From contig CALRCO010000003.1 in NCBI GenBank assembly GCA_943354645.1, positions 1 to 32,865 on the forward strand: a stretch of DNA of 32,865 nt, written 5' to 3'. The position numbers and the translations under genes are program-made. A model generated the notes under the pieces. It made no database searches and had not been told where the DNA came from. It saw nothing but the letters and a program-made list of their open reading frames with translations. The stretch is from Candidatus Nomurabacteria bacterium. Lineage in GTDB: Bacteria > Patescibacteriota > Minisyncoccia > Phycocordibacterales > UBA9973. Shown in pieces: positions 745 through 18,851 of this stretch; position 1 is the first letter of the stretch; each line of letters starts with the position of its first letter.

Positions 745-938
745 ATGTGTGTCGGAAACGGACTTGCCCGCAGCTAAAATTTCGCCGACGCTCAATTTTG
801 CTTGGGCACCGCCTCGTGATTTTTCGAAACGAAAAATAACACTCCGGCGTTCAAGTCCGCACGCATACAATGCAGATTGCATGCTTCGACCGCGCATATG
901 AAAAATCACCACAATTGTGGTGATTTTTCATATGCGCG
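745..938. repeat. tRNA-3'-associated structured element, copy 1 (tRNA-Asp)
   Basis: 766-858 aligns ungapped (72/93) to 17483-17575; 48-bp perfect palindrome 891-938 runs into the tRNA acceptor; inverted copy of the T arm GTTCAAGTCC at 849-858. Confidence 0.85.
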
Positions 939-1009
939 AGCGATGGGACTTGAACCCACGACCTCTCCCGTGACAGGGGAGCGCTCTGAACCAGCTGAGC
1001 TACGCCCGC
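935..1009 (-). tRNA. tRNA-Asp(GTC)
   Basis: Reverse complement GCGGGCGTAGCTCAGCTGGTTCAGAGCGCTCCCCT-GTC-ACGGGAGAGGTCGTGGGTTCAAGTCCCATCGCTCGCG folds as a cloverleaf; CCA not encoded. Confidence 0.97.
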
Positions 1010-15684: not shown

Positions 15685-16920
15685 TTAGTCGATAAAGGTG
15701 AGTGCTTTTCCTTTCTTGCCACCACGACCGGTACGGCCGATGCGGTGGATGTAATCATCATGGGTTGCAGGAATATCGTAGTTGATGACGTGAGAAATAT
15801 CTCTGACATCGATACCACGCGCCGCGACATCCGTTGCAACAAGAATTTGGATACCGTCGCCCTTGAATGCTTCGAGTGCGCGTGAACGTTTGCTTTGATT
15901 TTTGTCACCGTGAATTGATTCTGATTTGAAGCCTCGCGCAATCAAATCTTTGTGGAGTTTTTCAACGCCATGTTTTGTTTTGCCGAAAATAAGCACCTTA
16001 GAAAAATCAGTTTGAATCAAGAGGTCATGGAGTGCATCAATTTTATTTTTTCCTTTTTCAACACGCACGACATCTTGTTCAACAGACTTTGCGGTGTCGC
16101 CAGTTTTGACCGAAATGCTGATTGGATCGCGCAAGAAATCTTTGATAAGTGCTTCAACCTCGCGAGACATCGTTGCAGAGAAAAAGAGCGTGTGACGATC
16201 TTTTGGCATACGAGACATCATATATTTCATATCCGCGATAAATCCCATATCAAGCATGCGGTCTGCTTCATCAAGTACGACTGATTTAAAAGTCGAGAGA
16301 TCAAGCGCTTTGCGTTCCATTAAGTCTTTGATACGTCCTGGAGTGCCGATGACAAAGTTGTGTGAACGGCGAAGTCCTTGCAATTGTTTACCGATATATG
16401 AACCACCGACCGTACAGACAGAAAAAATACGAAGTCCTCGTGCGAAGCCGATCAATTCTTCTTCGATTTGCTGTGCGAGTTCTCGGGTTGGGACCACGAT
16501 GAGTACTTTTTCTGCTGGATTTTTAATCACCTTGTTTAAAAGGGGAATAAGAAATGCTGCCGTTTTACCGGTTCCTGTGTTTGCAATACCGACAATATCT
16601 TTTCCTTGCAAGATGTGCGGAATGGTCCGATCTTGAATCGGCGTCGGGACAGTGTATCCTTTCGTAATAATATTTTGCTTCAATCGTTCATCCACGAGAA
16701 AATCACTGAACATGTGTTCAGGTTTGAAATCTGGTATGACTTCAGTAATAACCGCTTTGTTGATATAGCGGGAGACGTCTATTTTACTACCGACGAAACG
16801 GCTACGGCCGCTTCCGCCGTTTCGCTTTCCTCCAAATGAAGAAGGTCGGCGACTAAAAGAGTTGCCACCACCTGTTGATGGTCGCTTTGCGAAATTGCTT
16901 CCGCCTTGTTTTTTATACAT
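15685..16920 (-). CDS. DEAD-box RNA helicase (411 aa from ATG 16920)
   Basis: PTPIQ, ANTGTGKT, PTRELA, TPGR, LDEADRMLDMGF, SAT, ARGID, HRIGRTGR. Confidence 0.97.
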   Translation of the reverse strand: MYKKQGGSNFAKRPSTGGGNSFSRRPSSFGGKRNGGSGRSRFVGSKIDVSRYINKAVITEVIPDFKPEHMFSDFLVDERLKQNIITKGYTVPTPIQDRTIPHILQGKDIVGIANTGTGKTAAFLIPLLNKVIKNPAEKVLIVVPTRELAQQIEEELIGFARGLRIFSVCTVGGSYIGKQLQGLRRSHNFVIGTPGRIKDLMERKALDLSTFKSVVLDEADRMLDMGFIADMKYMMSRMPKDRHTLFFSATMSREVEALIKDFLRDPISISVKTGDTAKSVEQDVVRVEKGKNKIDALHDLLIQTDFSKVLIFGKTKHGVEKLHKDLIARGFKSESIHGDKNQSKRSRALEAFKGDGIQILVATDVAARGIDVRDISHVINYDIPATHDDYIHRIGRTGRGGKKGKALTFID

Positions 16921-17070
16921 TATTGGTTCGGAGCCACTGTTAGAATATAAATGTAAGGTGGCTCGGTCTCGAAGTTTTCCAATAAAGACAAATAAATGTG
17001 CGTATTGCGCCTCTATATTTCTGAAGCAGTGCTTCTGAAACAAAAACTAATGAGATTTACTTACTCATCC

Positions 17071-17099
17071 ATAATAGCCTAAAACACGATTTTTGTCAA
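17071..17099 (-). promoter_or_regulatory. sigma70 promoter of helicase, about 145-nt 5' UTR
   Basis: Minus strand TTGACA, 17 nt, TATTAT. Confidence 0.7.
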
Positions 17100-17104
17100 A
17101 TTCC

Positions 17105-17422
17105 TTAGTTGAATTCAATTAAAATATCTCGGAAATTTTTAATTTTGTCATTTTTATCCAGTTCAATCTTTTCTTTTTTATATAGTGCGAGCCGCTCTTT
17201 CCGATGTGAAGGTGAGACCCAGATATGTCCATCTGCATACACAATCCGATGGAAGGGGATATTTTTGACGCCATTGTCATATGCTTTTCCCAAAATTGTT
17301 GTGATGCTTTGTGCGGCAATGCTACCTGCGCCTGCCGCACGTGCAATTCTGCCGTAGGTCGTCACTCGACCTTTTGGGATGCTTAATGCGATTTTGAGAA
17401 CGCGGTCGGAGAAGGTTTGCAT
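17105..17422 (-). CDS. MGMT-family alkyltransferase-like (ATL) DNA-binding protein
   Basis: IPKGRVTTYG.IA..AG and IPFHRIV, with no catalytic Cys. Confidence 0.85.
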   Translation of the reverse strand: MQTFSDRVLKIALSIPKGRVTTYGRIARAAGAGSIAAQSITTILGKAYDNGVKNIPFHRIVYADGHIWVSPSHRKERLALYKKEKIELDKNDKIKNFRDILIEFN

Positions 17423-17464
17423 AAAATGATTCAGAATCTGCCTATTGTCGATTTTCTTTGCAAA

Positions 17465-17641
17465 GCTGGGAGACTAGGGGTCGCCCGCGACTAAAACTTT
17501 TTCGTCAAAAAGTTTTGTCTGGGCACCGCCTCACGATTTTTCGAAGCGAAAAATAACGTTCCGGCGTTCGAATCCTAGTCGCGAGTGAAGCAGTTCACTC
17601 GCTTCCCGCAGCAAAATAAGCATCGCTTATTTTTGCTGCGG
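17465..17641. repeat. tRNA-3'-associated structured element, copy 2 (tRNA-Gln)
   Basis: Core 17483-17575 homologous to 766-858; inverted tRNA copy GTTCGAATCCTAGTC (17566-17580) and CCCGCAGC (17605-17612); degenerate direct copy 17465-17478. Confidence 0.88.
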
Positions 17642-17706
17642 GACTAGGATTCGAACCTAGATGACACGATTCAGAGTCGCGTATCCTACCATTAGATGAT
17701 CCCGCA
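17636..17706 (-). tRNA. tRNA-Gln(CTG)
   Basis: Reverse complement TGCGGGATCATCTAATGGTAGGATACGCGACT-CTG-AATCGTGTCATCTAGGTTCGAATCCTAGTCCCGCAG. Confidence 0.96.
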
Positions 17707-17817
17707 ATATTTAATCAAACCATTTATGAGGTAACCGAAAAATTGTGATCCTGTAATATTTTTGACTCACTTACTCTACATTATTTTCAGGATTTTTCAA
17801 CTTGGATATATAAAAAT

Positions 17818-17845
17818 GAGGGATTTTCATTAATGAAAATCCCTC
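17818..17845 (-). terminator. 28-bp perfect palindrome, probable terminator
   Basis: gagggattttcattaatgaaaatccctc just after the 17857 stop. Confidence 0.7.
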
Positions 17846-17856
17846 GTGTTGTTGTC

Positions 17857-18147
17857 TTAAATTGTCGAATAAATCATACCGGCGTATGAAATTTTTGGAC
17901 CAGCGACTCGAAACCATTGTAGAGCGTTTTTGAAGCGTCGTTCAAAAGCAGGTCTGTCTTTTGTTGTTTTAAAATCAGCACGAAGTGAGGTCATTATTTC
18001 TAACCATAATAAGTGCCATTCGTGAGAAGTTAATTCCGCGAGTATCCGTTTTTGTGGTTGTGTTTCAACAATGGTTTTTCCATTTGTTATTGGAACATCT
18101 TTGGGCACTATTTTCATGTTGTTTGAATTTAGGTGCATTCTAGACAT
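17857..18147 (-). CDS. hypothetical protein (start uncertain)
   Basis: Only ORF in the gap, followed by a hairpin. Confidence 0.55.
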   Translation of the reverse strand: MSRMHLNSNNMKIVPKDVPITNGKTIVETQPQKRILAELTSHEWHLLWLEIMTSLRADFKTTKDRPAFERRFKNALQWFRVAGPKISYAGMIYSTI

Positions 18148-18212
18148 TTTTCATCTCCTTGTCAAAGGTATCAACAATTGCTTTTAGGTAAATCTGTTAC
18201 AATATATTTTAT

Positions 18213-18851
18213 ATGAAGCAACTTCGTTTAGAATCACTCGCAGATGGTATTTTTGCCATCGTCATTACCTTGCTCGTATTCCATATTCGACTTCCTGAAT
18301 TACCCGTGAATGCAGGGGATGGTGCAATTTGGAATGCAATATTTGATATGCGTACACTCTTTGCAAGTTACGTACTTTCATTTGCGGTGCTCTTTACCTA
18401 TTGGCGTGCCCACCATTTTATTGCATCTGTATACGCAAAAGGAATTGATCAGATGTTTGTGAATATCAATGCGGTCTTTTTTGTGCTTGTTGCACTCGTG
18501 CCATTTTCTGCAGATATGCTCGGTAGATATAGTAAGTCACCGCTTGCGATTATGATTTTTTCTTTTAATATCGTCTGTATTGGTGCGGTGCTCTATTGGA
18601 TGCGGACATATGCAAAACGTGCACAGACAATTGAAAATCAAGATATATCTCCTTCCGAAGAACGTCATGCCATGATGCGCATTATGGTGCCAATGTTCAC
18701 TGCATTATTTGCGGTAATCATTGCGACATACAATACAGACGTAGCACTTGTTGTTCTTACTGCTGGTATTTTATTTAATTTGTCTCGCAGAAGTACTCAC
18801 GTCACCACGCGGATGCTCGGCATTGTCTTTGTTGATTTTAAAGAGAATTAA
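18213..18851 (+). CDS. TMEM175-family (DUF1211) potassium channel
   Basis: RLESLADGIFAIVITLLV (R...FSD...AI..TLL motif), SYVLSF, YWRAHH, LVPF. Confidence 0.88.
   Translation: MKQLRLESLADGIFAIVITLLVFHIRLPELPVNAGDGAIWNAIFDMRTLFASYVLSFAVLFTYWRAHHFIASVYAKGIDQMFVNINAVFFVLVALVPFSADMLGRYSKSPLAIMIFSFNIVCIGAVLYWMRTYAKRAQTIENQDISPSEERHAMMRIMVPMFTALFAVIIATYNTDVALVVLTAGILFNLSRRSTHVTTRMLGIVFVDFKEN

Follow-up and report, generated by a model that had tools for sequence, protein, structure and literature searches.

Downstream of a tRNA-Gln gene of Candidatus Nomurabacteria, the 3' part of the tRNA sequence occurs twice more, once inverted and once as a degenerate direct repeat. Which process placed these copies there, and do they serve the tRNA gene or something else? 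The locus lies in a window of 32,865 nucleotides, the whole stretch of DNA that was analysed, from a genome (G000) of 572,655 bases in 52 contigs which is 88% complete. The DNA sequencing runs containing the stretch are lake and freshwater metagenomes. The tiny genomes of CPR/Patescibacteria are generally regarded as poor in mobile DNA. Here, one structured non-coding element, present in up to 20 copies, occupies the ends of single-copy essential tRNA genes.

Three copies of the tRNA-Gln 3' end

The tRNA-Gln(CTG) gene (17635–17706; minus strand, as all features of the window described here) was detected by ARAGORN and Infernal, with 57.8 bits for the Rfam tRNA model. Its 3' part, from C56 in the T loop to the discriminator, constitutes the proximal direct repeat (DR1, 17635–17653) as revealed by direct-repeat comparison. 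The gene end is part of a near-perfect AT-rich palindrome (17604–17643), the outer arms of which are the acceptor 3' strand and its complement (17604–17616 and 17631–17643; 13 nt, 100% in the repeat search). The inner stem of the palindrome is weak and AT-rich, without a T run after it, and a consensus scan called no canonical terminator at this first hairpin of the tRNA-Gln copy. In other copies of the element described below, the inner part of the palindrome is a canonical bidirectional terminator.

The inverted copy consists of two parts. IR-acc (17603–17612; the plus strand reads TTCCCGCAGC) is the reverse complement of the acceptor 3' strand and the discriminator, and IR-T (17566–17580) is that of the T loop, the T-stem 3' strand and two acceptor nucleotides (G53 to C67). 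Between them is hp3 (17581–17602), a hairpin of 9 bp with a 4-nt loop (CTGC on the tRNA-sense strand; plus-strand sequence GCGAGTGAA-GCAG-TTCACTCGC), which is supported by covariation across copies and splits the inverted copy at the T-stem/acceptor junction. Two core helices follow, both defined from a 20-copy alignment with a manual structure. P3 (17527–17566), also represented in the covariance model R1 introduced below, has a 4-bp stem, an internal loop (GGA opposite GA) and an AT-rich hairpin. P4 (17483–17524) has the form GCCC-A-GAC, hairpin loop GACG, GTC-GC-GGGC, and adjoins without a gap the distal repeat DR2 (17465–17483), a degenerate direct repeat of the tRNA 3' part. At this locus the element is about 170 nt long and has no ORF inside; the gene downstream encodes an MGMT-like DNA-binding protein (Pfam).

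An initial annotation of the locus had described the tRNA 3' half as inverted and split by a hairpin, with a degenerate direct copy in addition, and this was confirmed by repeat search and shuffling. The longer pair of inverted arms (17566–17583 and 17639–17656) comprises 18 nt with 94% identity, and the direct pair (17465–17483 and 17635–17653) 19 nt with 79% (15/19). Each strand of the window contains the 15-mer GTTCGAATCCTAGTC of the inverted copy once, and none of 100 dinucleotide shuffles contains it. By itself, DR2 with its 15 of 19 matches would be weak evidence; its meaning comes from the family-wide pattern. Since its acceptor part, TCTCCCAGC, is the tRNA-Gln acceptor strand of the relative G029, and since the repeat and its flank are common to G001, a genome from the same genus as G000, DR2 looks like the displaced fossil 3' end of an older tRNA-Gln.

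The 5' side of the gene has a repeat of its own. Positions 17746–17761, 49 nt upstream of the tRNA-Gln gene, form a 16-nt direct repeat (88%) with 17697–17712, which covers the tRNA-Gln 5' start and the bases upstream of it. In G001, a remnant resembling the tRNA-Gln 5' end (TGGGAGATCAT...) lies upstream of the tRNA-Gln gene. As far as sequence comparison goes, such 5'-like repeats near tRNA-Gln genes may be traces of earlier replacements or inversions. In a synteny comparison based on the neighbouring helicase gene, the tRNA-Gln gene was still nearby in only one of 12 named relatives.

A family of elements behind tRNA and tmRNA genes

Positions 17465–17634 are one copy of a small non-coding, structured and repeated element of about 130–250 nt. 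BLAST against the own genome showed that 17471–17603 recurs elsewhere in G000 at 78–89% identity. Twenty copies from G000 and its relatives were aligned (alignment A2), and a hand-written structure was used for the covariance model R1. Searches with R1, BLAST and nhmmer gave 14 matches in G000, of which 13 reach E ≤ 1.7e-8. Eleven of these 13 copies are located directly behind a tRNA or tmRNA gene on the same strand, the hosts being the tRNAs for Gln, Pro, Asp, Ser-GCT, Leu-GAG, Arg-TCT, His, Glu and Val-GAC, a 'tta' tRNA, and tmRNA. One of them is found in the window itself, downstream of tRNA-Asp (934–1009, minus strand), at 735–931 on the minus strand (R1 match 761–886, 129.2 bits). The other two of the 13 are a tandem second copy and a copy on contig C21 without a recognised RNA gene.

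Two of these loci have peculiarities. No tRNA or tmRNA is recognisable ahead of the copy at G000:C21:6592–6717, where the upstream sequence ends in ...CCGGGGTGACACAAAACG and has no Rfam match at E ≤ 0.1. The 'tta' tRNA (G000:C9:948–1021), which carries an element of the short type, is reported by ARAGORN as 'tRNA-Stop'; by eye, its loop can also be read as CTTTTAA, giving tRNA-Lys(UUU), and the assignment may be a register artefact.

Among 41 relatives from the same order, 33 have R1 matches (0–20 copies per genome), as do five of 151 genomes sampled across the phylum, for which stricter filters were applied. Within one family, some genera have no copy and others have 20. From four distant genomes 19 loci were fetched, and a script found a same-strand tRNA just upstream in 17 of them; beyond these 17, a tRNA-Glu-like gene was seen by eye at locus L064. 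An exact-motif scan of metagenome contigs yielded at least 120 loci, and there were 84 motif matches among the 80 loci listed. Seventy of the listed matches have at least 250 nt of upstream sequence. A same-strand tRNA ends 77–199 nt before the motif in 47 of these, and an opposite-strand tRNA is upstream in none of the 70. Five of the 23 listed matches without a tRNA are chance matches in GC-rich coding DNA; the others are mostly located behind tmRNA 3' ends or are tandem copies. The tRNAs hosting the listed metagenomic copies represent 27 anticodons. The host range comprises Candidatus Nomurabacteria-like and other Patescibacteria genomes.

The three-copy layout, whose absence from other loci would have counted against the initial annotation, recurs behind many tRNA genes and tmRNA. 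Read in the tRNA sense, the general arrangement begins with the 3' part of the tRNA, extending from around C56 in the T loop to the discriminator. Next come a hairpin, usually a bidirectional terminator, and the exact reverse complement of this tRNA part, often split by hp3. The conserved core with two covarying helices follows, and the last piece is a second direct copy, putatively the displaced original tRNA end, which often still has the original terminator. The minimal unit contains the hairpin, IR-T, the core and DR2; the acceptor part and hp3 are missing from many copies.

The family behind tRNA and tmRNA genes of CPR bacteria is apparently undescribed. We found no description in Rfam 15 or in the full-text literature (main texts, mostly open access), and an earlier one may exist. 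In the regions searched with Rfam 15, only tRNA and tmRNA reach the gathering and E-value thresholds, and at E ≤ 10 the stretch has only the tRNA and chance-level matches. The strict core motif had no match in viral contigs; a looser motif had at least 120 viral loci, and R1 matched none of the 80 listed. The element accounts for odd tRNA trailers, tandem fragments of tRNA ends and contig breaks in CPR assemblies, and the covariance model R1 can serve as a marker for its loci.

Each copy is matched to its own tRNA

The repeats of an element correspond to the tRNA gene beside it. In 30 of 49 metagenomic copies, DR2 is identical to positions 61–72 of the own tRNA (12/12), which is the case for none of 490 permuted tRNA/element pairs. 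At least 10 of the 12 positions agree in 36/49 copies, compared with 10/490 permuted pairs. The repeat starts around C56, in the T loop. DR2 is decayed in 19 of the 49 copies.

The inverted copy is equally specific. IR-acc matches at 7/7 positions in 20/49 copies versus 4/490 permuted pairs, and the former number is an undercount since the register is off by one for some tRNAs. The T-loop complement was found in 42 of 48 copies. For the tRNA-specific nucleotides of IR-T, at least five of seven agree in 27/48 copies, while this holds for 39/347 of the other tRNAs with the same T loop. IR-T also mirrors T loops that are rare (TCCGACT, TCCGAGT and TCCGATT).

The strand from which the inverted copy derives can be read from G·U pairs within the tRNA. 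At G2·U71 of tRNA-Glu and G3·U70 of tRNA-Ala, the only rows used in the metagenomic comparison, the inverted copy complements the 3' strand, and the same is true for the tRNA-Ala of G000. This rejects a duplicate of the tRNA 5' half as the origin of the inverted copy. A self-priming or primer-binding site was rejected as well: the complementarity enters the genomic trailer rather than CCA, and short copies are without the acceptor part. In the two cases in which DR1 and DR2 differ (tRNA-Gln of G000 and tRNA-Val of G001), the inverted copy agrees with the tRNA, and thus with DR1, but not with DR2.

The core is conserved in structure

In alignment A2, the 41 pairs of the structure are 92.3% paired. 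Shuffled alignments are paired to 75.5%, with none of 500 reaching the observed value, and when the partners are slid by 1–3 columns only 36–50% remain paired. Compensatory (two-sided) changes occur in 32 of the 41 pairs; independently, RNAalifold found them in 26 of 31 pairs. For hp3, seven of nine pairs show such changes. The core of about 95 nt has the same helices behind more than 25 tRNA species (counted by anticodon) and tmRNA in distant lineages. Cores cluster by genome or lineage and not by tRNA type in a FastTree analysis of a short alignment, read from its topology and with faulty strand labels for minus-strand rows. The internal loop of P3 (17527–17566), GGA opposite GA, is invariant, and in a structural model it could form tandem sheared G·A pairs resembling a kink turn.

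Non-canonical pairs were used to determine the folding strand. Read in the tRNA sense, an alignment of 53 copies contains 1786 Watson–Crick, 50 G·U and 18 A·C cells, with the reservation that it was fitted to the RNA model and leans towards RNA pairs. In hp3, where this alignment is unambiguous, the ratio is 16 G·U to one A·C. A MAFFT alignment of 20 copies gave 13 G·U and 11 A·C. The share of G·U is low, about 2.5% of pairs. The excess of G·U over A·C points to the tRNA-sense strand as the strand that folds, either as RNA or as single-stranded DNA. The element alone is predicted to fold into a rod (−67 kcal/mol, z = −5.7).

The strong covariation and the conservation of unpaired bases would be compatible with a host RNA gene as well. 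The segment from IR-acc to DR2 would then be a host or domesticated tRNA-like small RNA which is transcribed in the direction of the tRNA, by read-through or co-transcription, and excised by tRNA-processing enzymes. Its acceptor-like helix, hp3, the T-stem-like helix and the three-way junction of the core would mimic the acceptor/T helix of the neighbouring tRNA. The covarying helices and invariant unpaired bases, the excess of G·U over A·C on the tRNA-sense strand both overall and in hp3, the fixed orientation relative to the tRNA, the terminator often present after DR2 and the predicted rod all agree with such an RNA. We nevertheless regard it as unlikely. The inverted copy matches DR1 and not DR2 where these differ, DR2 is decayed in 19/49 copies, and copy numbers range from 0 to 20 between genera of one family. 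A strong terminator separates the tRNA from the element in most copies, and at the tRNA-Gln copy, the one considered in this respect, no own promoter was seen. The small G·U share, in an alignment that was itself fitted to an RNA model, also argues against a host RNA.

Competing folds of read-through RNA

The initial annotation had proposed that the inverted copy pairs either with the tRNA or with the distal copy, and these mutually exclusive pairings hold in silico. For a read-through RNA that starts with the tRNA and extends through the distal copy, the predicted minimum free energy is −113.5 kcal/mol. In this fold the inverted copy pairs with the 3' half of the tRNA, and the distal copy with its 5' acceptor strand. 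When the cloverleaf is enforced in the same RNA, −96.3 kcal/mol is obtained. An RNA ending after the first hairpin retains the cloverleaf (−30.1 vs −30.7).

From such pairings, the annotation had derived an attenuator or processing switch: the inverted copy would compete for the tRNA 3' half or pair with the distal copy as a decoy, and would thereby regulate how the tRNA matures or whether transcription reads through into the downstream gene. The alternative pairings do exist in the folding predictions, the tRNA-disrupting fold being 17 kcal/mol more stable in read-through RNA, and the first hairpin at the tRNA-Gln copy is not a canonical terminator. A switch is highly improbable all the same. 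There is no constant downstream gene, the genes behind different copies being unrelated, and relatives have anything from 0 to 20 copies. Identical tRNA genes of sister genomes work with or without the element. IR-acc and hp3 are absent from many copies, and in most copies a strong terminator lies ahead of the inverted copy. In Rfam, no leader, riboswitch or other known cis-regulator was matched. Thus, of the two interpretations offered by the annotation, the attenuator-like switch found no support, and the footprint of an insertion that regenerates its target did. The alternative pairings may still have a side effect on read-through transcripts. Since the first hairpin is not a canonical terminator there, read-through and competing folds could matter more at the tRNA-Gln copy than elsewhere.

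Presence and absence of copies in related genomes

Comparison of G000 with G001 revealed loci with and without an element. tRNA-Val(GAC) carries a long element in G001 and none in G000. DR2 of G001 and the next 70 nt correspond to the tRNA end and trailer of G000, including the T-loop variant CGAAT; the present tRNA of G001 and its inverted copy both have CAAGT. The tRNA-Arg(GCG) genes of both genomes are identical, and G000 has only a terminator where G001 has an element. The terminator behind DR2 of G001 resembles the native one of G000, with compensatory stem differences. At tRNA-Gln, G001 has an element of a different family before the same DR2 and flank as in G000. An insertion that regenerates its target, as envisaged in the initial annotation, is supported by the layout matched to the own tRNA, by the filled and empty sites at tRNA-Val and tRNA-Arg, and by the distal repeat and terminator which correspond to the native gene end.

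Both presence/absence cases could be losses via recombination between the direct repeats instead of gains. Contigs of four DNA runs contain one joint, from 17421 to 17634, which hints at an empty allele of the tRNA-Gln locus; found in a single contig with 29 nt on the short side, it is too weak to count. Tandem copies occur in G000, in distant genomes and in metagenomes. In genomes G183 and G086, the direct repeat runs through the terminator, IR-acc and part of hp3 (>60 nt), as expected from a circular form integrating by recombination within that segment.

Rearrangements were noticed at two of the loci. The upstream flank of tRNA-Arg(GCG) in G000 (G000:C9:5300–6300, compared with L041) is located downstream and inverted in G001, and comparison of window positions 16900–18600 with L037 revealed an inverted copy of the DR2 flank upstream near the tRNA-Gln gene of G001. 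Inversions seem to accompany the element loci at tRNA-Arg and tRNA-Gln.

These rearrangements bear on an explanation without dedicated mobility, in which the copies would be by-products of local DNA events at tRNA genes, namely template switching at terminator palindromes, unequal crossing-over, or att leftovers of prophages and islands, and would spread between strains by ordinary homologous recombination only. The inversions at tRNA loci between G000 and G001 are in line with it, as are the A-B-A' layout with repeats through terminator and hp3 in G183 and G086, and the long near-perfect palindromes centred on terminators, a pattern resembling quasi-palindrome correction. We consider this origin quite unlikely. 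The same core of about 95 nt with its helices is present behind tmRNA and more than 25 tRNA species in distant lineages. A core resembles the others of its own genome more than those found at the corresponding tRNA in other genomes; att leftovers would not have a common structured core.

Two further structures were observed behind tRNA genes. At G000:C5:18943–19010, tRNA-Ala is followed by a terminator, a complement of the acceptor/CCA end and a decayed hp3-like hairpin, with no core; from its sequence, this is possibly a 'solo' remnant after element loss. A second, unrelated element family is located behind the tRNA-Gln gene of relatives (L037 of G001, 1799–1960; L011, L020 and L028). In this family the inverted tRNA 3' half is contiguous and is followed by a G-rich core (GGGAAAGGGGTCGGGGAAAC...) and a direct repeat; Rfam gave no match.

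A probable insertion element with a T-loop target

The family is linked to tRNA and tmRNA genes, has repeats matched to the respective target and a covarying core, differs in presence between genomes, forms tandems and reaches 0–20 copies. We consider it probable that it represents a non-autonomous insertion element with a structured core, which targets the T loop and regenerates the tRNA. The element would insert site-specifically at the T loop, around C56, and would supply or duplicate the 3' end, so that a single-copy tRNA gene is kept intact; the three copies would be the footprint of this insertion. We infer that the element moves and that it folds as a single strand, either DNA or RNA, of tRNA-sense polarity. 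Pairing of the tRNA 3' part with the inverted copy would form or guide the recombination site.

The hardest point is that, for each tRNA to which it moves, such an element must gain the target sequence in direct as well as in exactly inverted orientation. We know of no mechanism that provides a mover with both for each new target. As candidate routes, the target might be duplicated and then undergo palindrome correction, a folded single strand with a stem mimicking the tRNA gene end might integrate, or the inverted copy might serve as a guide.

The last of these routes can be extended to a protein-less, nucleic-acid-guided element which retargets itself, with the inverted copy as a programmable guide. 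We put this forward tentatively and think it rather unlikely. A single-stranded RNA or DNA form would select its site by 12–22 nt complementary to the T loop and the 3' strand, while the conserved core would recruit a host or helper enzyme. The constant T-loop part could sample any tRNA or tmRNA gene, and the variable part would be rewritten for each new neighbour. If this is true, a self-retargeting insertion element exists in some of the smallest bacterial genomes.

For the T-loop-targeting insertion element in general, mobility would mean that a parasite uses essential genes as safe harbours without encoding a protein. How the target comes to be copied in both orientations at every new site would then be a mechanistic puzzle. 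The element could also lead to a novel recombination activity that is guided or directed by structure.

Relation to known systems

Tyrosine integrases direct genomic islands and prophages into tRNA and tmRNA genes, at the T loop or the 3' end. As an example, attB of phage Ms6 lies in the T loop of a tRNA-Ala (PMC1762012). The element resembles such islands in its tRNA and tmRNA targets, the repeat from T loop to 3' end, the regenerated gene, and the original end displaced to the far side; flanking T-loop repeats and both empty and filled sites were found. It differs by its size of about 130–250 nt without an integrase or any ORF, by up to 20 copies per 0.6–1.3-Mb genome at many tRNAs, and by the internal inverted target copy and covarying core. 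CIMEs are flanked by att sites and have no recombination genes of their own; they are kilobase-scale decay products of ICEs or IMEs. Att-like direct repeats, the lack of an integrase and presumed movement in trans are common features, but here the whole element is a tiny conserved structured unit.

REPINs are small non-autonomous repeats moved by RAYT Y1 transposases. Like MITEs and REP/REPIN sequences, the element is short, non-coding, rich in hairpins, multi-copy, intergenic and non-autonomous. Unlike these, it is strictly located at tRNA and tmRNA 3' ends in fixed orientation, and its 'terminal' repeats are derived from the target. MITEs have terminal inverted repeats of their own and a short target-site duplication of fixed length; not typical of them are the inverted segment that varies with the tRNA and the direct repeat of about 12–20 nt (>60 nt in G183 and G086).

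Integron attC sites and the attP(+) hairpin of CTX phage are recombination sites formed by a folded single strand, on which IntI or XerCD acts. By analogy, inverted segments of the element would fold to a duplex site, with structure conserved over sequence and with strand asymmetry. The target is a tRNA gene, however, and not attI or dif, there is no known IntI-type gene, and the rebuilt duplex would be the tRNA 3' half itself. Guides are known from the EBS of group II introns, of which IIC introns insert after terminators, and from the bridge RNA of IS110. Common to these and the element are an internal segment complementary to the flanking target and the insertion right behind a terminator hairpin. 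The element has, in contrast to group II introns, no intron domains or Rfam match; unlike for IS110, no IS110-type recombinase (PF01548) is found in G000 (88% complete); and it differs from both by duplicating its target.

Candidate enzymes

None of the copies encodes a recombinase or transposase, or has one beside it, and no excised or circular form of the element was seen. The single tyrosine recombinase of G000 (PF00589) is Xer-like and is encoded on another contig. The resolvase, rve and TnpB families, like IS110, have no match in G000 at its completeness of 88%.

G000 has a gene for a Y1 (RAYT/IS200-like) transposase of 218 residues with HUH and Tyr motifs (G000:C46:1196–1928, L210), flanked by two inverted 29-nt hairpins (CCCAGGAGGC...GCCTCCTGGG) which occur nowhere else in G000. 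It was rejected as the mover: its private hairpins, present only twice in G000, differ from hp3, and Y1 does not co-occur with the element. Y1_Tnp is found in 71 of the 151 sampled genomes and in two of four other element-carrying genomes. Reverse transcriptase was dismissed as a candidate because its gene adjoins bAvd, which assigns it to a DGR. This DGR, a reverse transcriptase gene with a divergent bAvd-like gene at G000:C20:5254–6613 (L045, 1342–2701), is present in a genome of 0.57 Mb.
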